The notes beneath the pieces are model-generated. The model was not told the origin of the DNA and did not search any database. It saw only the letters and a list, made by a program, of their open reading frames with translations. 64,000 nucleotides of DNA from Roseomonas sp. (GTDB taxonomy: Bacteria; Pseudomonadota; Alphaproteobacteria; Acetobacterales; Acetobacteraceae): the NCBI GenBank assembly GCA_051860065.1, contig JBHYEQ010000002.1:277773-341772 (forward strand), given 5' to 3'. Both the position numbers and the translations under genes were made by a program. Shown here piece by piece: positions 2,470-17,324 of the stretch; position 1 is the first letter of the stretch; each line of letters opens with the position of its first letter.

Positions 2470-3770
2470 CAGCCGACCAGCACCGCGGCGCGGCTGATCG
2501 GGTTGGCGCCGTAGCCCTGCGGGTTCCAGTTCGCCGCGACATGCGGCTGCATGCGCCCGTTGCTGTCGGTCGCGCGGTACCAGATTTCGTAGTAGCCGTC
2601 GGAGGGGAAGGCGACGCGCCCGCTCCAGCGCTGCCAGGAATGCCGGTTGGGCGGCGCCGCCACCGTCATGGCCTGCCAGGACTGGCCGAAATCCACCGAG
2701 ACGTCGACCGCGCGCACCGTCAGGTCGCCGGCCCAGGCCTGGCCGCGGATGTCCAGGTTGCGCGTGCCCGCCGGCAGGCGCGTGCCATGCGCGTGGCTGG
2801 TCAGCACGGAGCGCACCGGCATGCTCTCCATGTCCACGAAATCCGCGCCATTGTTGCGGCTGCCGGGCACGATCGGGCGCACCGGGATGCGGTAGGAGGT
2901 GCCGCCCATGCCGCGCCCGGTATGCGGCGTGGCCTTCAGCTCGATGCGCGTGAACCATTTCTGGCTGAGCGAGCCCGGCCAGCCCGGCACGATCAGGCGC
3001 ACCGGCGCGCCATGCATCTGCGGGATCGCGGCGCCATTCATGCGGATGGCGACGAGCGTGTCCTCGTCCATCGCCTTGTCGATCCGCATGCCGCGGCTGA
3101 TCGCCGGGCCCTGGGCGGACAGGTGCGTATCGGCGCCGTGATGGCCGGTGAATCTCGCGCTTTCCTTCAGCCCGGCCGCGCGCAGCACATCGCGCAGCCG
3201 CACGCCGGTCCATTCGGCGTTGGAGATGGCGCCATTGCCCCATTGGTTGCCCGCCGCCTGCGGCGTGAAGCCCGAGCGTCCATTGCCGCCGCATTCCATC
3301 TGCAGGCGCATGGTGACCAGCGGGAAGCGCGATTCCAACTCGCCCACCGTCAGTTCGAGCGGCGTGTTCACCTCGCCATCGACCGTCACCTTCCAGGCGC
3401 GCGGGTCGGCGGCGGGCTCGGGCACGGCGCCATTGTTGCGGATAAAGAATTTCTCCGCCGGGGTGATGTCGTCATCGAGCAGCGCCTCGGGCGTCTCGGC
3501 ATTGAGCGGGCGCTCGCCCTGCATGATGAGGCGCGCCTTGCCTTCCATCTGCAGGAACTGCGGCGCTGACCCTTGCGCGAGTGCCGCCGGCAGCAGCCCA
3601 CCCGGCAGGTGGCGCGCGAAGGGGATGGCACTGCCCAGCGCCACTCCCATGGCCGCCAGCGCCGCGCCCTTCAGCGTGTCGCGCCGGCCCCAGGCCAGGG
3701 CATCGGCACGCTCGGGGTCGTCGCTGTAGAGTTCGGCGAGCGAGCGCTCGGTCCGCGTGTATCTCGGCAT
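2469..3770 (-). CDS. sulfite oxidase family molybdoenzyme (SorA/SorT-like)
   Basis: Tat motif GRRDTLK, FFIRNNG, Mo-ligand ECGGNGR, HGAPVRLIVPGW, C-terminal dimerisation domain (WNPQGYGAN). Confidence 0.9.
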   Translation of the reverse strand: MPRYTRTERSLAELYSDDPERADALAWGRRDTLKGAALAAMGVALGSAIPFARHLPGGLLPAALAQGSAPQFLQMEGKARLIMQGERPLNAETPEALLDDDITPAEKFFIRNNGAVPEPAADPRAWKVTVDGEVNTPLELTVGELESRFPLVTMRLQMECGGNGRSGFTPQAAGNQWGNGAISNAEWTGVRLRDVLRAAGLKESARFTGHHGADTHLSAQGPAISRGMRIDKAMDEDTLVAIRMNGAAIPQMHGAPVRLIVPGWPGSLSQKWFTRIELKATPHTGRGMGGTSYRIPVRPIVPGSRNNGADFVDMESMPVRSVLTSHAHGTRLPAGTRNLDIRGQAWAGDLTVRAVDVSVDFGQSWQAMTVAAPPNRHSWQRWSGRVAFPSDGYYEIWYRATDSNGRMQPHVAANWNPQGYGANPISRAAVLVG

Positions 3771-3820
3771 CGCTTCCTCCGTGATTGTTTGCGCGTTTAC
3801 GCATGAAGGATGTCGCACCC

Positions 3821-5299
3821 ATGCCCCACCCGGCAAGGCCCTTTGAGCTCCTGACGCCGGAGGAGATGGCGCACGCCGATGGCCTGGCGATCGCCGGCGG
3901 CATCCCGGTGGACCGGCTGATGGAGGCCGCGGGCCGCGCCGTGGCGCGCGCGGCGATGCGGCGCTTCCGGCCGGTGCGGACGCTGGTGCTGGCCGGGCCG
4001 GGGAACAATGGCGGGGATGGCTATGTGGCGGCGCGGCTGCTGGACCAGGCGGGCTGGCCGGTCGCGGTGGCGTCCCTGGCGGCGCCGCGCCCGGACAGCG
4101 CTGCCGCCCGCGCCGCGGCGCGCTGGCGCGGGCTGGTGGTGCCGTTCTCGCCCGCCGAAGCCGCCCGGGCCGGTCTGGTGATCGACGCGGTGTTCGGCGC
4201 CGGCCTGGCGCGGCCTGTCGATGGACTGGTGGCCGCAACGCTGGCGGCCGCGGGTGGGCCGGTGCTGGCGGTGGACATGCCCTCGGGCGTCGATGGCGCG
4301 ACCGGGCAGGTGCTGGGCTATGCGCCGCAGGCCGCCCTGAGCGTCACCTTCTTCCGCCGCAAGCCTGGGCACCTGCTGCTGCCCGGGCGGCTGCTCTGCG
4401 GCAAGGTGGTGCTGGCCGATATCGGCCTGCCGGCATCGGTGCTGGACGCCGTGGCGCCGGGCTGCGCGCACAACCTGCCCGGCCTGTGGCGCCTGCCCCA
4501 GACCGACCACGGCGCGCACAAATACAGCCGGGGCCATGTGACGGTGGTGGCCGGCGCGGGCATGACCGGCGCGGCCCGGCTGGCGGCGGATGGCGCGCGG
4601 CGGGGCGGCGCCGGGTTGCTCACCATCGCCGCGCCGGACCGCCAGGCCGCTGATGTACTGCGCGGCGGCGCGCCTGGCGTGATCGTCACCGAGGCAGCGC
4701 CGGCCGATCTCCTGGCCGACCCGCGCCGCGGCACCTGGGTGATCGGACCCGGCCTGTCGCCCGACGCCGCCACGCTCGCCCTGCTGCGCCAGGTGGTGGA
4801 GGCGGGCAGGGCGGTGGTGGCCGATGCCGGGGCGCTCGGTGCCGCAACCGGCAACCCTGCTGCGCTGGCCGGCTGCGCGGTGCTGACGCCGCATGCGGGG
4901 GAATTCACCCGGATCTTCGGCCCGATCGGCGGCGACCGGCTGGCCGCGGTGCGGCGGGCGGCGGCGCTGTCCGGCGCGGTGGTCGTGCTGAAAGGTCCGG
5001 ATACGGTGATCGCCGCGCCTGACGGCCAGACGGCGATCAACGACCACGCACCGCCCTGGCTGGCGACCGGCGGGACCGGGGACGTGCTGGCCGGCATGGT
5101 GGCCGCGCTGCTCGCGGCGGGAAGCACGGCCTTCGAAGCCGCCTGCGCCGCGGCCTGGTTGCATGGCGAGGCCGGTTTCGCCTGTGGCGAGGGGTTGCTG
5201 GCGGAGGATCTCGCCGCCTGCATCCCGGCGGCGATGGCGCGGGCGCGGGAGGTGATGGAGTTCCCGCGCCAGGACCAGCCCGCAACGCAATATCATTAG
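3821..5299 (+). CDS. nnr: bifunctional NAD(P)H-hydrate epimerase/dehydratase
   Basis: GPGNNGGDG, DAVFGAG, AVDMPSG, HKYSRG, LTPHAGEF, LATGGTGDVLAG; start could be 3803. Confidence 0.93.
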   Translation: MPHPARPFELLTPEEMAHADGLAIAGGIPVDRLMEAAGRAVARAAMRRFRPVRTLVLAGPGNNGGDGYVAARLLDQAGWPVAVASLAAPRPDSAAARAAARWRGLVVPFSPAEAARAGLVIDAVFGAGLARPVDGLVAATLAAAGGPVLAVDMPSGVDGATGQVLGYAPQAALSVTFFRRKPGHLLLPGRLLCGKVVLADIGLPASVLDAVAPGCAHNLPGLWRLPQTDHGAHKYSRGHVTVVAGAGMTGAARLAADGARRGGAGLLTIAAPDRQAADVLRGGAPGVIVTEAAPADLLADPRRGTWVIGPGLSPDAATLALLRQVVEAGRAVVADAGALGAATGNPAALAGCAVLTPHAGEFTRIFGPIGGDRLAAVRRAAALSGAVVVLKGPDTVIAAPDGQTAINDHAPPWLATGGTGDVLAGMVAALLAAGSTAFEAACAAAWLHGEAGFACGEGLLAEDLAACIPAAMARAREVMEFPRQDQPATQYH

Positions 5300-10814: not shown

Positions 10815-13199
10815 ATGACAGTGCAGGGCAAGGGCCGTCGCCTGGACACGCCGGATGGGGCGCGACGCGTCGAGATCCTGCATGCGCTGGAACGCAAGCT
10901 GCTTTGGCTCAGCGCCTGGATGATCCACCACGCCAACCATATCCGCCCGAACCGCGACGGGCTGAAGGTGGGCGGCCACCAGGCGTCCTGCGCGTCGTCG
11001 GTGTCGATCCTCTCGGCGCTGTATTTCGGCATCCTGAAGCCGGCCGACCGGGTGGCGGTGAAGCCGCATGCCGGGCCGGTCTTCCATGCCATCAACTACC
11101 TGCTCGGCCGGCAGGACCGCGAACGCCTGTCCACGCTGCGTGCCTTCGGCGGCATCCAGCCCTATCCATCCCGCGTGAAGGACGGGGCAGAGGTGGATTT
11201 CTCCACGGGCTCGGTGGGCCTGGGCGTGGCGCTCGCATCCTTCGGGTCGCTGGTGCAGGACTATGTGCGGCTGCACGAACTGGCCCCCGAGGGGCTGCCC
11301 GCCGGCCGGCACGTCGCGGTGGTGGGCGATGCGGAACTCGACGAGGGCAACATCTACGAAGCCCTGCTGGAAGGCTGGAAGCACGACATCCGCAATGTCT
11401 GGTGGGTGGTGGACTACAACCGCCAGTCGCTCGATTCCGTGGTGCCCGACCGGCTGTTCGGCCGCATCGAGGGCCTGTTCCGCGACATGGGCTGGAACGT
11501 CGTCACCATCAAATACGGCCGCAAGCTGGAAGCCGCCTTCGCGCGCCCGGATGGCGAGCATCTGCGCCGCTGGATCGATGACTGCCCCAACAGCCTCTAT
11601 GCCGCACTGACCTTCCAGGGCGGGGCGGCCTGGCGCTCGGCGGTGCTGGCGGAACTCGGCCGCATCGAGGGCATCCGCGCCATCATCGACCCGCTGACCG
11701 ATGATGAATTGGCGACGCTGATGACCAACCTCGGCGGCCACGACATCGAGACGCTGGCCGATGCCTTCCGCGCCCAGGATGCCGAGGGCGACCAGCCGAC
11801 CTGCTTCATTGCCTATACCGTGAAGGGAATGGGCCTGCCCTTCGCCGGCCACAAGGACAACCATTCCGGCCTGATGACCAAGGAGCAGATGGGCAGCTTC
11901 CGCGAGGCGATGCGCATCCGTCCCGGCCATGAATGGGATCTGTTCGAGGGCCTCGACATCCCCGAGGCGGAGCTGCGGGATTTCCTGGCGCAGGTGCCCT
12001 TCGCGCAGCTCTTGACGCCGGCCGGGCGCCGGTTGTCGTCGCCCACCATCCATGTTCCGGCGGTGATCGCCGCGCCCAAGGTGGGCGAGGGTCGCAAGCA
12101 ATCCACCCAGGCGGCCTTCGGCGACATCCTCGCCGAGATCGGCCGCGGCAACGGCGAATTCGCCGAGCTGTCGAAGCGCATCGTCACCACCAGCCCGGAT
12201 GTGACGGTGTCCACCAACCTCGGCCCCTGGGTCAATCGCCGCGGCATCTTCGACCGGCACAAGAAGAACGACGTGTTCCGCGACGCGAAACTGGCCTCCG
12301 CGCAGCGCTGGGGCATGTCGCCGGAAGGCCAGCATGTCGAACTGGGCATCGCCGAGCAGAACCTGTTCCTGGTGCTGGCGGGGTTGGGGCTGGCCGATCG
12401 GTTGTATGGCGCGCGGCTGCTGCCGATCGGCACGGTGTACGACCCCTTCGTCAACCGCGGCCTCGATGCGCTGATCTATGCCTGCTACCAGGATGCGCGC
12501 TTCCTGCTGGTCTCCACGCCGTCCGGGCTGACGCTGGCGCCGGAAGGCGGGCAGCACCAGTCGGTGAACACGCCGCTGATCGGCATGGCGGCGGATCGAT
12601 TGGCGAGCTTCGAACCGGCGCATGCGGATGAACTCGCCATCCTGCTGCGCCACGCCTTCGATCACATGCAGAAGCCGGATGGCTCGGCGGTCTGGCTGCG
12701 GCTGTCCACGCGCGGGCTGGAGCAGCCGGCGCGCGTGCTGGACCCGGCCGCGGTGGTCGCCGGCGGGCATTGGGTGGTGGAGCCGGGGCAGGGCGCGCGC
12801 ATCGCCATCGCCTACCAGGGTTCGCTGGCGCCCGAGGCTGTCGCCGCGTTCGAGGAATTGCGCAGCGAGGAACCGACAGCCGGTCTGCTCGCCATCACCA
12901 GCCCTGACCGGATGCATGCGGAATGGCTCGCGGCGCGCCGGTCCGCGCGCAACGGCACGCGTGTGGAATCGCATGTGGAGCGACTGCTCGCACCCCTGGC
13001 GCGCAATGCCGCGCTGGTCACGGTGCTGGACGGCCACCCGGCGGCGCATGCCTGGATGGGCGCGGTGCGCGGCCAGCGCGTGGTGCCGCTCGGCGTGGAC
13101 CGCTTCGGGCAGGCGGGCGATATCCCGGACCTCTACCGCGAATACGGGCTGGATTCCGACGCGATCCTGGATGCCTGCGCCGAGGCGCTGCTGGGCTAG
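10815..13199 (+). CDS. TPP-dependent AceE/transketolase-like enzyme (pyruvate dehydrogenase E1-like)
   Basis: KVGGHQASCAS, DFSTGSVGLG, TPP motif GDAELDEGN, YNRQSLD, ELGIAEQN, EGGQHQS. Confidence 0.85.
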   Translation: MTVQGKGRRLDTPDGARRVEILHALERKLLWLSAWMIHHANHIRPNRDGLKVGGHQASCASSVSILSALYFGILKPADRVAVKPHAGPVFHAINYLLGRQDRERLSTLRAFGGIQPYPSRVKDGAEVDFSTGSVGLGVALASFGSLVQDYVRLHELAPEGLPAGRHVAVVGDAELDEGNIYEALLEGWKHDIRNVWWVVDYNRQSLDSVVPDRLFGRIEGLFRDMGWNVVTIKYGRKLEAAFARPDGEHLRRWIDDCPNSLYAALTFQGGAAWRSAVLAELGRIEGIRAIIDPLTDDELATLMTNLGGHDIETLADAFRAQDAEGDQPTCFIAYTVKGMGLPFAGHKDNHSGLMTKEQMGSFREAMRIRPGHEWDLFEGLDIPEAELRDFLAQVPFAQLLTPAGRRLSSPTIHVPAVIAAPKVGEGRKQSTQAAFGDILAEIGRGNGEFAELSKRIVTTSPDVTVSTNLGPWVNRRGIFDRHKKNDVFRDAKLASAQRWGMSPEGQHVELGIAEQNLFLVLAGLGLADRLYGARLLPIGTVYDPFVNRGLDALIYACYQDARFLLVSTPSGLTLAPEGGQHQSVNTPLIGMAADRLASFEPAHADELAILLRHAFDHMQKPDGSAVWLRLSTRGLEQPARVLDPAAVVAGGHWVVEPGQGARIAIAYQGSLAPEAVAAFEELRSEEPTAGLLAITSPDRMHAEWLAARRSARNGTRVESHVERLLAPLARNAALVTVLDGHPAAHAWMGAVRGQRVVPLGVDRFGQAGDIPDLYREYGLDSDAILDACAEALLG

Positions 13200-13609
13200 G
13201 GTAGGACCGCCAGGCCACGCGATGACGCGGCGTCGCGCAAGGCGCGGTCGCGCGTGGCGAGCGGCAGCGCGAGCCGTTCGGCAAGTTCGAGGTAGCTCGC
13301 GTCATGCACCGTGAGCCGGAGCTCCGCCGCAAGGCCGATCAGCCCGGCCCAATCCAGCCCTTGCGGCGCGGGATGCGTTTCGGTTGGCAGGCGGGCAAGC
13401 CGTTGCAGAAGCGCCGGGATCCGCCCGGGCAGGAGCCGCTTCCGGCTTTCCGCCTGGAGCAGCACGTTGGCAACCTCGTAGTGCCACAGGGCTGGCACGG
13501 CCGCGCCGTCGCGCGCCGTGCGGTCGAGCAGCGCATCGGTCTCGGGTGCCGCCTCGTCCTCGAACAGCCAGGCGACCGCGACCGAACAGTCGAGCACCAG
13601 CGCGCTCAC
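13196..13609 (-). CDS. vapC: type II TA toxin, VapC/PIN domain
   Basis: LVLDCSVAVAW, LWHYEVANVL, LTVHDASYLELA, LATRD. Confidence 0.92.
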   Translation of the reverse strand: MSALVLDCSVAVAWLFEDEAAPETDALLDRTARDGAAVPALWHYEVANVLLQAESRKRLLPGRIPALLQRLARLPTETHPAPQGLDWAGLIGLAAELRLTVHDASYLELAERLALPLATRDRALRDAASSRGLAVLP

Positions 13610-13845
13610 CGTCGCCCTTCGTCACGCATTGCCTTCCAATCCAGCCCATCCAGCCGGTTGGCGCGCCGCAATCCGCGCAACTCCTCCGCCGCGCGCTGCG
13701 CGTCCTCCCCATCAGGGGTGACGGGCACGATGCGGGCGACAGGCCTGCCGCGGCGGGTGATGGTGATGGCCTCGCCATGCTCGACGCGATCGAGCAGATC
13801 GCCCAACCGCGTCTTGGCGTCGAAGGCGCCGATGCTGCGTGTCAT
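13606..13845 (-). CDS. type II TA antitoxin, Phd/YefM family
   Basis: IGAFDAKTRLGDLLDRVEHGEAITITRRGRPVARIVP; 4-nt overlap with the toxin gene. Confidence 0.92.
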   Translation of the reverse strand: MTRSIGAFDAKTRLGDLLDRVEHGEAITITRRGRPVARIVPVTPDGEDAQRAAEELRGLRRANRLDGLDWKAMRDEGRR

Positions 13846-13935: not shown

Positions 13936-14187
13936 TCAGCGCTGCTGGCGCTGCTCGCCCTGGCCGGCCTGCTGCTGCTGCTTCGCCTGCGAAGCCGAGC
14001 AGTTCAGCTGGACCTGCTGACCCGCCACGCCCTGCACCGCCTGCAGGGGCAGGTAGTGGTGCTGCTGGTCGGCACCCTTGGTCAGCTTGATGCGGTCGCC
14101 CTCGACGCGGTCGACCGTGCCGACGCGCTGGCCGTCATTGCCGACGACGTCCATGTGCTCGCGGATCTGGTTGGCGTGTGCGTTCAT
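13936..14187 (-). CDS. DUF2171 family protein
   Basis: IREHMDVVGNDGQRVGTVDRVEGDRIKLTK...HHYLPL. Confidence 0.85.
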   Translation of the reverse strand: MNAHANQIREHMDVVGNDGQRVGTVDRVEGDRIKLTKGADQQHHYLPLQAVQGVAGQQVQLNCSASQAKQQQQAGQGEQRQQR

Positions 14188-14381: not shown

Positions 14382-14466
14382 GCGGGCGTGGTGGAACTGG
14401 CAGACACGCCGGATTTAGGTTCCGGTGGCGCAAGCCGTGGGGGTTCGAATCCCTTCGCCCGCACCA
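14382..14466 (+). tRNA. tRNA-Leu (anticodon TAG)
   Basis: acceptor GCGGGCG/CGCCCGC plus ACCA, anticodon arm CCGGA-TTTAGGT-TCCGG, long variable arm, GGTTCGAAT T-loop. Confidence 0.97.
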
Positions 14467-14506
14467 AAGGCGCCGCTGGTTTTCTCTAGCTGTTGGAAGT
14501 CTCTCG

Positions 14507-16345
14507 ATGCAGGTCACCGAGCTCGCGAATGACGGGCTGAAGCGCGCCTATTCCGTCATCGTCACCGCGGGCGACATCGCCACCACGCGCGACAAGCGCC
14601 TGGCGGAGATCGCCAAGACCGTCTCCATGCCCGGCTTCCGCCCCGGCAAGGTGCCGATGTCGGTGGTCAAGCAGCGCTACGGCGCCGCCGTGCTGGGCGA
14701 GGTGCTGGAACAGCAGGTGTCCGACGCCTCCCGGCAGGTGGTGACCGACCGCGGCCTCAAGCCCGCGCTGCAGCCCAAGATCGACATCGTGAACTTCGCC
14801 GAGGGCGCGGATCTCGAATTCCGCATGGACCTCGAGGTGCTGCCCGAGGTGCCGATGCCCGAATTCGCCGGCATCGAGCTCGAGCGCCTCAAGACCGAGC
14901 CGACGGATGAGGCGATCGACAAGGCGCTGGCCTCGATCGCCGAGCGCAACGGCACCCTGGAAGATGCCGAGCCGCGCGCCGCCGGCAATGGCGACATCCT
15001 GGTGTGCGACTTCACCGGCCGCCTGCCGCAGAACCTGCTGAAGAACGGCGTGGGCCTCGGCGCGCGCCCCGGCAGCCCGGGCGAGGTGCCGACCGAGTGG
15101 TCGGTCGATGTCTCCGGCGGCCTCGCGCATGAAGTGGCGGCGATCGGCTCCGAGCGCGGCCTGCCCTATTTCGACGCGAAGGTGACGGGCACCGCGAGCG
15201 AGGCCGGCTTCATCCGCATCTTCGCCGCGCGCCCGAATGGCCTCGCGGCCAAGCCGGGCGCCGTCTACACGCTGTCCGTGCAGGCGCATGTCGCCGCCGG
15301 CGCGCTGCCGCAGGGCGCGATGGCGCAGTTCGGCTTCAATGAGCGCTCGGCGGATGCCTTCCTGCGCTCGACCCGGGCCAATTGCAGCCTGAACGCGCAT
15401 GGCGACCGCGCGACCTTCACGCTGACCGACGATGCAGCGCTGGCCTTCGCCCGCCCGGTGATCGACATCGCCTTCCCGTCCGGCGCCACGGTGGACCTGA
15501 CGCTGCGCGTCGGCCCGATGCGCGTGGTGGCCGGCGCCGAGGAAGGCGAGGCCCCGGCCTTCGCCGGCGGCGCCGCGACGGACATGCCCATCGAGGTCGG
15601 CGGCCAGGGCTTCATCCCCGGCTTCACCGAGCAGATGGTCGGCATGGCCCCGGGCGACAGCCGCGACATCGACGTGACCTTCCCGGCCGACTACGGCTCG
15701 GCCGACCTGGCCGGCAAGCATGCCCGCTTCACCATCGCCGCCAAGGCGCTGAAGGCGCGCAAGCCGGTCGCGATCGACGACGACCTCGCCAAGGCCGTCG
15801 GCATGGCCGACCTGGCGGCGCTGAAGGATGCGATTCGCGGATCGCTGCAGCGCGAATACGACGCGCTGTCGCGCATGAAGGTGAAGCGCGCGCTGCTGGA
15901 CCAGCTGGCCGACCGCGCCTCCTTCCCGGTGCCGGAAGGCATGGTCGAGGCCGAGTTCGCGCAGATCTGGCAGCGCGTCGAGGCCGACCTCAAGGCCGGT
16001 CGGCTCGATGCCGACGACCAGGGCAAGGACGAGGAAACGCTCAAGGCCGAATACCGCACCATTGCCGAGCGCCGCATCCGCTTGGGCCTGATGCTGTCGG
16101 AGATCGGCCGGGCCAACAACGTCCAGGTCGGCCAGGACGAGATGACCCGCGCCGTGCGCCAGGAGGCCTCGCGCTATCCCGGCCAGGAGCAGCAGGTGCT
16201 GGAGTTCTTCCGCAAGAACCCGCAGGCCGCCGAGAATCTCCGCGCGCCGATCTTCGAGGAGAAGGTCGTCGACTTCATGCTGGAACTGGCGAAGGTGAAT
16301 GACCGCCAGGTGACGCCCGAGGAGCTGAGCGCCTCGGTCGCCTGA
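14507..16345 (+). CDS. tig: trigger factor with a ~170-aa internal insertion
   Basis: ribosome-binding motif PGFRPGKVP, FKBP motif GGQGFIPGFTEQMVGM and VTFPADY..LAGK.A.F, C-terminal RRIRLGL and LRAPIFEEKVVD. Confidence 0.95.
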   Translation: MQVTELANDGLKRAYSVIVTAGDIATTRDKRLAEIAKTVSMPGFRPGKVPMSVVKQRYGAAVLGEVLEQQVSDASRQVVTDRGLKPALQPKIDIVNFAEGADLEFRMDLEVLPEVPMPEFAGIELERLKTEPTDEAIDKALASIAERNGTLEDAEPRAAGNGDILVCDFTGRLPQNLLKNGVGLGARPGSPGEVPTEWSVDVSGGLAHEVAAIGSERGLPYFDAKVTGTASEAGFIRIFAARPNGLAAKPGAVYTLSVQAHVAAGALPQGAMAQFGFNERSADAFLRSTRANCSLNAHGDRATFTLTDDAALAFARPVIDIAFPSGATVDLTLRVGPMRVVAGAEEGEAPAFAGGAATDMPIEVGGQGFIPGFTEQMVGMAPGDSRDIDVTFPADYGSADLAGKHARFTIAAKALKARKPVAIDDDLAKAVGMADLAALKDAIRGSLQREYDALSRMKVKRALLDQLADRASFPVPEGMVEAEFAQIWQRVEADLKAGRLDADDQGKDEETLKAEYRTIAERRIRLGLMLSEIGRANNVQVGQDEMTRAVRQEASRYPGQEQQVLEFFRKNPQAAENLRAPIFEEKVVDFMLELAKVNDRQVTPEELSASVA

Positions 16346-16370
16346 CCAAGGCCTGCGCAAGGGTTCCGAG

Positions 16371-16402
16371 AGGGGCGGCCGGTCCACCGGCTGCCCCTTT
16401 TT
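16371..16402 (+). terminator. intrinsic terminator after tig
   Basis: AGGGGCGGCCGG-TCCA-CCGGCTGCCCCT followed by TTTT. Confidence 0.8.
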
Positions 16403-16562
16403 CGTGCAGGAACGGCGGCCCGGACGCCATGCAGCCCGTGCGTCATGGAAATTCATGCGCCAAGCGCGGGCCTGCCTTGCGCGGCGCACCGCGCCTCGCC
16501 TACACCGCAGTATCGAAGTGCGATCGGCCATCCAGGCCGGCGGGTAGGGGAGCGGTTCAAGC

Positions 16563-17324
16563 GTGTCCGACGCGATTCTGGAAACCAGTGGCCTGACGAA
16601 GGAGTTCCGCGGCTTCGTCGCCGTGAACGACGTGAACCTGTCGGTGAAGCGCGGCAGCATCCATGGGCTGATCGGCCCGAACGGCGCGGGCAAGACCACC
16701 TGCTTCAACCTGCTCACCAAGTTCCTTCTGCCGACGCGCGGCACCATCCGCTACGACGGGCGGGACATCACCGGCATGAAGCCGGCGGAGATCGCACGGC
16801 TGGGGCTGGTGCGGTCCTTCCAGATCTCGGCGGTCTTCCCGCATCTGTCGGTGCTGGAGAATGTGCGCGTCGCGTTGCAGCGCCAGCGCGGCGGGTCGTT
16901 CGACTTCTGGCGTTCGGACAGCGTGCTGCGGTCCTACGATGCGCGGGCGCGCGAGTTGCTCGACGATGTCGGGCTGTCCACCTATGCGAACCTCACCGCC
17001 GGCGAATTGCCCTATGGGCGCAAGCGCGCGCTGGAGATCGCCACCACGCTGGCGCTCGAACCCACCATGCTGCTGCTCGACGAGCCCACCGCGGGCATGG
17101 CGCATGACGACGTGGACCGCATCGTGACACTGGTGCGGCGCGTGGCGGCCGGGCGCACGGTGCTGCTGGTCGAGCACAACCTCAAGGTGGTCTCGGGCCT
17201 GTGCGACACCATCACGGTGCTGGCGCGCGGCTCCGTCCTGGCCGAGGGCGACTACGCCACCGTGGCCCGCAACCCCGAGGTCATCGCCGCCTACCTTGGC
17301 ACCGAGGTTTCCGAGCATGTCTGA
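16563..17324 (+). CDS. HAAT ABC transporter ATP-binding protein (LivG-like)
   Basis: GPNGAGKT, LPYGRKRALEIA, LLLDEPTAG; GTG start. Confidence 0.92.
   Translation: MSDAILETSGLTKEFRGFVAVNDVNLSVKRGSIHGLIGPNGAGKTTCFNLLTKFLLPTRGTIRYDGRDITGMKPAEIARLGLVRSFQISAVFPHLSVLENVRVALQRQRGGSFDFWRSDSVLRSYDARARELLDDVGLSTYANLTAGELPYGRKRALEIATTLALEPTMLLLDEPTAGMAHDDVDRIVTLVRRVAAGRTVLLVEHNLKVVSGLCDTITVLARGSVLAEGDYATVARNPEVIAAYLGTEVSEHV

Follow-up and report, generated by a model that had tools for sequence, protein, structure and literature searches.

Trigger factor is among the most conserved and best-studied chaperones. Its three-domain plan is uniform in everything that we searched, and no natural trigger factor with an inserted domain was found among the solved structures or in the searched literature. 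The nearest arrangement is seen in SlyD-type FKBPs. In SlyD, a small insert-in-flap (IF) domain, which is conserved as a chaperone domain, occupies the flap (80s loop) near the active site. It forms an autonomous unit within a loop of the FKBP-type peptidyl-prolyl isomerase (PPIase) of a folding helper, and is an example of how FKBP folds accept additional binding domains and can gain from them. This IF domain is the closest concept to the protein described here (PMC5034536, PMC11013033). On the side of phages, siphophages decorate evolved Dit, Tal and neck-passage proteins with carbohydrate-binding modules (CBMs) (PMC6669499, PMC7533335, PMC10688798). The subject of the present analysis is the trigger factor gene tig in a stretch of 64,000 nucleotides from Roseomonas sp. 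(contig JBHYEQ010000002.1, positions 277,773 to 341,772), which is called the window and whose own numbering is used throughout. The FKBP head of this trigger factor is split by a 167-aa domain predicted to be a CBM-like β-sandwich, and the relatives of this domain are modules of phage virion proteins. The gene and its parts are the following.

14507..16345 (stop codon included), + strand: tig, trigger factor of 612 aa with the insert (open reading frame (ORF); TIGR00115)
14507..14935, + strand: N-terminal ribosome-binding domain, aa 1–143, with the GFRPGKVP signature at aa 43–50 (Pfam Trigger_N, 1.5e-38)
14954..15028, + strand: FKBP domain part 1, aa 150–174; its strand 164–172, DILVCDFTG, ends in the split hairpin (alignment with Escherichia coli trigger factor, DSSP)
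15029..15529, + strand: inserted module, aa 175–341, one complete unit with a predicted CBM4-like β-sandwich, a hypervariable cassette (alignment of long and short forms)
15530..15766, + strand: FKBP domain part 2, aa 342–420 (Pfam FKBP_C at 352–405, DSSP)
15812..16285, + strand: C-terminal chaperone ('arms/body') domain, aa 436–593 (Pfam Trigger_C, 1.9e-38)

In its profile matches and motifs, the window Tig is a trigger factor with all the features that define the family. The TIGR00115 'tig' profile scores 387.8 bits against a cutoff of 180.2, and the match falls into two stretches that flank the insert. All three Pfam domains are found, and FKBP_C is matched only over profile positions 25–86, because the insert separates the first strand. 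In the ribosome-binding signature, G43, G47 and P50 are invariant among 82 sequences, and F44, R45, P46 and K48 are nearly so. The FKBP pocket residues F169, F352, I370, F373, Y396 and F408 are equally conserved in forms with the insert (long) and forms that have none (short). D168 and F169 of the first FKBP strand are conserved. The full-length AlphaFold2 (AF2) model, made with 82 sequences, has a mean predicted local distance difference test score (pLDDT) of 90.3 and shows the insert as a separate all-β domain. The order of elements in this model is strand 164–172, insert, strands 351–363, helix 374–377 and strands 385–391 and 405–419 (DSSP). In the PDB it matches E. coli trigger factor best (2vrh and 1w26, E 1e-27); CBM4 modules come next and match the insert. 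The long protein thus shares the GFRxGxxP motif of the N-domain, the pocket of the FKBP head and the C-terminal cradle with canonical trigger factor (TIGR00115; E. coli 1w26 and 2vrh), but canonical trigger factor lacks the 167-aa folded domain inside the FKBP hairpin. The FKBP-type PPIase domain retains its pocket residues, and its strands are intact in the model. As the ribosome-binding motif, the PPIase pocket and the C-terminal cradle are intact, the long protein should still work as a ribosome-associated chaperone.

The window tig is the organism's single orthologous trigger factor gene. Long forms and short orthologues occupy the same chromosomal locus, and the E1-type gene precedes tig in both kinds of genome. 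The window contains neither a further tig nor a further copy of the module, and no long-form genome occurs twice among the best 80 tig loci. In many bacteria tig is followed by clpP-clpX. The window tig is followed by LivG/LivF-type ABC ATPase genes instead.

The insert boundaries come from two alignments. Residues 1–172 of E. coli trigger factor (1w26, 432 aa) align with residues 1–173 of the window Tig, and residues 173–428 align with 346–608. About 172 aa of the window Tig are without counterpart in this alignment. The alignment with 43 short orthologues of 440–452 aa fixes the insert at aa 175–341, nt 15029–15529. The flanks in the window Tig are 'DFTGRLPQ' before the insert and 'AGAEEGEAPAFAGG' after it, while short orthologues have only 'DFVGRLDP-AEGEEGPGEAFPGG' at this site. 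The preliminary description of this locus, made from the window sequence, had placed the insert at 15026–15540 (aa 174–344), which is right within a few residues. It had given the protein 612 aa with about 440 aa after removal of the insert; the ORF is indeed intact, and 445 aa are left after removal. Its impression of an intact frame with a host-like codon style agrees with the GC content at third codon positions, 0.928 in the insert and 0.942 in the Tig core. In comparison with the SlyD-type IF domain, the Tig insert lies at a different place, in the first β-hairpin between the first FKBP strand and the xxFxGG strand (E. coli trigger factor 172/173), is a CBM-like jelly roll of 167 aa, is hypervariable, and shows no homology to the IF domain. 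The site presumably corresponds to about residues 31–33 of FKBP12, as judged from the alignment.

The insert was also modelled alone. The AF2 model, made with 28 sequences from an alignment of whole single-module proteins, is an all-β sandwich of about 10 strands with a pLDDT of 95.2 and a predicted template modelling score (pTM) of 0.89. The top Foldseek matches in the PDB are CBM4/CenC-type modules (2y64, 1gui, 3jxs and 3k4z), with a probability of 1.0, E values of 4.6e-6 to 1.4e-5 and template modelling (TM) scores of 0.43–0.57. They are followed by CBM16, CBM22, CBM11 and CBM61 and by CBM-like domains of Klebsiella phage tail fibres and tailspikes. In the viral fold library BFVD, the insert matches tail fibre, minor tail, tip-attachment and neck-appendage proteins with TM scores of up to 0.78. 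The insert shares with CBM4/CenC modules the jelly-roll fold and a similar N-terminal motif, N-L-x-x-N ... G ... W; it differs from them in that the TM scores are only moderate, the CBM_4_9 profile is missed and the setting is cytoplasmic. The insert alone matches no NCBIfam model and, at E up to 0.01, no PHROG family. A profile search against PDB chains gave nothing significant. The weak hints in this search are CBM22 at E 0.02–0.06, and CBM22 and a phage BppA-like chain within E 0.02–0.2. Matches to 'Pizza' designer proteins among the PDB chains were set aside as repeat artefacts. On the models, the likeness to CBM4 holds at the level of the fold only, and the insert may bind sugar, a putative role suggested by the CBM4 fold and the virion relatives.

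An exhaustive representative search with the insert (phmmer) gave 2,228 proteins at E up to 1e-3, 475 of them at E up to 1e-10. A hidden Markov model (HMM) made from the Tig inserts detects the module 353 times in the 149 best representatives, as 1–7 tandem copies per protein, and each of the 149 has a full-length match. Of the 353 copies, 299 cover the HMM almost from end to end, and the window insert matches the module HMM end to end (positions 1–173). By this coverage, the Tig insert is exactly one complete unit of a family of modules of about 170 aa. The identity between the Tig insert and phage modules is about 27–36% per module, and phmmer E values go down to 1e-56 for multi-copy proteins. 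In composition, the Tig inserts are rich in A, G and L, and the phage modules in T, S and N. Members of the family match the PHROG tail-protein families 5939, 1419 and 5983. The sole phage match in INPHARED is gp49 of Azospirillum phage Cd, a 'tail protein' with 28% identity, which adjoins a tail-fibre component, a DUF4376 protein and the endolysin. The member P0004 (locus L082, 10001–14800) has 1,599 aa and 7 modules and lies inside a phage structural gene block, after terminase, portal and capsid-region genes and before head-tail connector (Mu Gp36-like, Tail_S) and baseplate genes. One member is fused to DUF2460, which we take to be an RcGTA-type distal tail protein family. Another one, P0129, has a genuine CBM_4_9 domain beside the module. 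These CBM-type decoration modules have the same length and boundaries as the Tig insert and stand in tail or structural gene blocks, whereas the Tig insert is a single copy in a host chaperone and not on a virion. The virion setting of the family fits the habit of siphophages to decorate their proteins with CBMs (PMC6669499, PMC7533335, PMC10688798). The gene cluster around P0004 is that of a Mu/P2-like myovirus, and its module array may decorate the head rather than the tail.

Further searches for relatives added little. Word-indexed homologue searches with the insert and with the module profile yielded no more than three or two fragments, on contigs prone to error, and it was the exhaustive search that brought the family to light. 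Scans of viral contigs with the profile, with one phage module and with the window insert gave no usable pattern or confirmed relative. Neither INPHARED nor the viral-contig scans yielded a recent phage donor for any Tig allele.

Most of what the preliminary description had said about the nature of the insert is borne out by these results. The β-sandwich fold that it proposed agrees with the model of the insert. The likeness to CBM4/9 jelly rolls stands at fold level, with 2y64, 1gui and 3jxs among the Foldseek matches, and is lost at profile level, where Pfam CBM_4_9 is not matched. A resemblance to structural proteins of alphaproteobacterial phages had been suggested; the 2,228 matches, the PHROG tail families, phage Cd gp49 and the block around P0004 give it substance. 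The search with the insert alone that had been advised returns phage proteins among its matches, and Tig has the insert at 36 of 79 related loci. The word 'foreign' is apt for a phage-type module, not for a recent arrival, as the sequence features are those of an old, fully ameliorated capture. The description had also counted it as a refutation if close relatives all carry the insert and it is an annotated subfamily of Tig; many relatives do carry it, but it is not an annotated subfamily.

The 79 related tig loci comprise 36 long and 43 short forms. Long forms occur in Neoroseomonas, Plastoroseomonas, Siccirubricoccus, Pseudoroseomonas, Pararoseomonas, R. rosea and several metagenome-assembled genomes (MAGs), and short forms in Belnapia, Dankookia, Roseicella, Roseococcus, Falsiroseomonas, Paracraurococcus and others. 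On a tree of 436 core columns, the two forms are interleaved. The clearest case is the pair of Roseomonas sp. LUR113 (L024, long) and R. pecuniae (L068, short), whose loci are collinear over 9.8 kb with 94–96% DNA identity. The sole difference is 'DFVGRLV[EGEGDEAT]VGEPFPGG' in the short form and 'DFVGRLV[154-aa module]VGEPFPGG' in the long form, so that the insert-less allele of R. pecuniae has an acidic loop of 8 aa in place of the module.

Several loci are unusual in other ways. The Tig of MAG MFD04716 (L014, 4001–5959; P0229) has 652 aa, about 40 aa over its relatives, and the extra residues lie near the C-terminus (columns 628–681). In an ENA contig (L001, ERZ25039462 contig_73657, 3082–4928), the tig of a near relative is split by frameshifts into three calls of 295, 142 and 181 aa. 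The neighbouring genes are equally fragmented, which looks like an uncorrected long-read assembly and not a pseudogene, and the insert is present. Caldovatus sediminis has a degenerate Tig paralogue of 645 aa (P0117, WP_188899276.1; L084 and L085) with 35% identity to the window Tig. Of the Pfam domains, Trigger_C alone is recognised in it, DFTG is changed to DVVA and the N-terminal GFRxGxxP region is unaligned. Its module occupies the same position as in Tig, but the gene lies in another neighbourhood, beside a GT61 glycosyltransferase. The insert of this paralogue falls within the clade of Tig inserts.

The insert changes much faster than the protein that carries it. Identities to the window Tig are 98% in the core and 81% in the insert for locus L002, 86% and 43% for locus L011, and 60–70% and 17–32% between clades. 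The insert diverges 4–10 times faster than the core, and its dS is about 1.7 times that of the core. The ratio omega of dN to dS (Nei-Gojobori) is 0.16–0.36 in the insert and 0.05–0.15 in the trigger factor domains. At these values the insert is under purifying selection, held as a folded domain yet freer than the core. Among the loci L025, L027 and L047, the cores are almost the same (dN 0.02–0.03) and the inserts in effect unrelated (dN 0.7–0.9). Their DNA identity drops from 90–100% to 28–60% across nt 505–1030 of the gene, with sharp breakpoints at about nt 500 and 1035. The omega of about 1.1 in these three was rejected as a sign of positive selection, since the alleles are non-orthologous. 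In long-form pairs with 94–97% core identity, the insert identity is as low as 43%. The insert tree mostly tracks the core clades; the LUR113 insert groups with an allele of the Pseudoroseomonas clade (55% identity) and not with its core neighbours. By these comparisons, the insert is an exchangeable, hypervariable cassette that is swapped wholesale between lineages.

When 42 Tig inserts are placed together with 110 phage modules in a neighbour-joining tree, all Tig inserts fall into one clade in 38 of 40 bootstraps. Because of this grouping a single ancient capture is favored, and a single old, phage-derived origin of the module is probable. The module would most likely have been captured once, long ago, in the ancestor of an Acetobacteraceae subgroup (Roseomonas sensu lato), and would then have diverged into many allelic lineages. 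Alleles would be exchanged laterally by homologous recombination through the highly conserved flanks of tig, and the exchange would include replacement by the insert-less allele with its 8-aa acidic loop. In the protein, the module would be an added binding surface shown at the tip of the trigger factor head. Its ligand may differ between lineages and may be a glycan, by analogy with the phage relatives, or a protein partner; a protein ligand in the cytoplasm seems at least as plausible as a glycan. Diversifying selection on the specificity of the module is suggested, because very old alleles are kept and shuffled in near-identical tig genes. Taken as a whole, the reading that this is an orthologous trigger factor with a captured and swapped phage-type module, which serves as an added lineage-specific binding surface, has a probability of about 0.6.

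Several observations weigh against this reading. The trees are single-gene neighbour-joining trees. Between clades, Tig inserts are no more alike than a Tig insert and a phage module, and their monophyly could be inflated by the shared A/G/L composition against the T/S/N composition of the phage modules. The insert alone matches no Pfam family at E up to 1, CBM_4_9 (PF02018) included. No sub-region with omega of 1 or above was found in the window's clade, so that positive selection is not shown, and the purifying selection might be due to nothing more than the harm done when an insert misfolds in so abundant a protein. Among the RNA-seq runs, none holds more than 12% of the tig query words.

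Three other explanations were weighed against an added binding surface. The long form could be an artefact or a non-protein feature: a misassembly, a pseudogene, an intein or other self-removing element, or a paralogous second tig. Nothing positive speaks for this idea, which is raised since 612 aa instead of about 440 aa is unusual and RefSeq truncates some orthologues, and it is effectively refuted. In three independent DNA runs, contigs reach from 14627 to 16260 or 16500 and cross both junctions with zero differences. The long architecture occurs also in 36 other species-representative genome assemblies, with intact ORFs of 586–652 aa. The misassembly that the preliminary description wanted checked is excluded because the three runs and the 36 genomes show the same architecture, and the insert stands. 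An intein was rejected: there is no Hint or homing-endonuclease domain in Pfam at E up to 1, and the model is an all-β CBM-like sandwich. The insert starts with N175 after P-Q and ends with V-V before A-G, with no Cys, Ser or Thr at position 1 and no terminal His-Asn. A paralogue was rejected from the shared synteny and the collinear loci of LUR113 and R. pecuniae, which together with the single tig copy noted above make the gene orthologous. The module could instead be a neutral passenger, captured by accident at a permissive hairpin, functionless in itself and foldable only because misfolding would be harmful in one of the most abundant cytosolic proteins, its patchiness being due to ordinary recombination and occasional loss. 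Much fits this view. The site is a surface hairpin away from the FKBP pocket residues, which are unchanged, and the constraint is 2–5 fold weaker than in the core, with no region at omega of 1 or above. Alleles that lack the insert are viable and widespread, being present at 43 of 79 loci, one member of a near-conspecific pair included, and the conserved residues of the insert are fold-defining motifs common to the phage modules. However, all 36 genome-derived long forms are intact ORFs, in at least six genus-level groups, and omega is 0.2–0.36 and not about 1. Whole clades retain the module although it could easily be lost by a clean deletion, and alleles of about 30% identity are kept and exchanged among cores of about 95% identity, a pattern more typical of diversifying or balancing selection. 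On balance we regard a neutral passenger as rather unlikely.

A further possibility starts from the same allele pattern and sets the module in a conflict with phages. Borne on trigger factor, it would be a decoy or sensor for nascent phage structural proteins of the same family, or for their glycan ligand, binding or co-assembling with them at the ribosome exit, and an arms race would maintain the diversity of alleles. The only other homes of the module are phage virion proteins, trigger factor meets every nascent chain, and a cytoplasmic housekeeping gene that is hypervariable, keeps ancient alleles and exchanges a cassette has the hallmarks of a conflict locus. If this were true, negative frequency-dependent selection would explain how ancient alleles of about 30% identity persist among tig genes of about 95% identity. 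The module, present at very high copy by the ribosomal exit, would interfere with infection or report it, and a core chaperone would become part of the immune repertoire. However, the only candidate near tig is a Phd/PIN toxin-antitoxin pair, and no defence genes were recognised there (the PADLOC library was not searched). No paper linking trigger factor inserts to phages was found in the searched literature, and the searches of phage sequences gave no close counterpart to any Tig allele. We therefore consider a role in phage conflict improbable.

What is new in the present case is the patchy, fast and cassette-like evolution of the insert and its probable single phage-derived origin. A whole group of Acetobacteraceae would have a polymorphic, exchangeable, phage-derived CBM-like module on the head of trigger factor, and one does not expect a housekeeping gene to have a part that is patchy, swapped and sometimes absent. 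Should the module have a ligand, it would offer a natural experiment on how a ribosome-associated chaperone can be re-targeted, to be compared with engineered FKBP-IF chimeras, and it could reveal a new mechanism of client selection or phage interaction. Even if neutral, it would be a clean and datable domestication of a phage structural domain into a protein of an essential pathway. Sequences of insert-bearing trigger factors are public and the feature appears to be undescribed; NCBI, UniRef and IMG label long forms simply 'trigger factor', with no annotated Tig subfamily. There is also a practical annotation problem, since RefSeq truncates some long-form genes. The NCBI proteins of Neoroseomonas marina (L005, 4001–5830; P0257, 416 aa) and N. 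eburnea (P0251, 392 aa) are truncated at the N-terminus. For P0257, the annotated start is an internal ATG inside the insert, aa 194 of an ORF that is intact over 609 aa, so that the whole ribosome-binding domain is lost. This truncation is probably a start-site artefact of the unusual architecture.

The neighbours of tig in the window are the following.

10815-13199: transketolase/E1-type gene, upstream of tig
13196-13609, − strand: PIN-domain toxin of a type II pair, overlapping the antitoxin gene by 4 nt
13606-13845, − strand: Phd/YefM antitoxin of the same pair
13936-14187, − strand: DUF2171 small protein with a Gln-rich C-terminal tail
14382..14466, + strand: tRNA-Leu, anticodon TAG (ARAGORN), ending 40 nt before the tig start codon
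16563-18063: LivG/LivF-type ABC ATPase genes, downstream of tig

An antisense ORF of 753 aa covers the whole of tig (14486–16747, − strand). It is spurious, typical of DNA with 70% GC, and no gene. The Phd/YefM-PIN pair stands between the E1-type gene and tig, and it does so only in some of the related loci. The mechanical ORF of the DUF2171 gene runs to 14517 through the tRNA-Leu gene and is spurious in this extension. The DUF2171 gene itself adjoins tig only in the window, in L002, in the MAG locus L014 and in the ENA contig L001.

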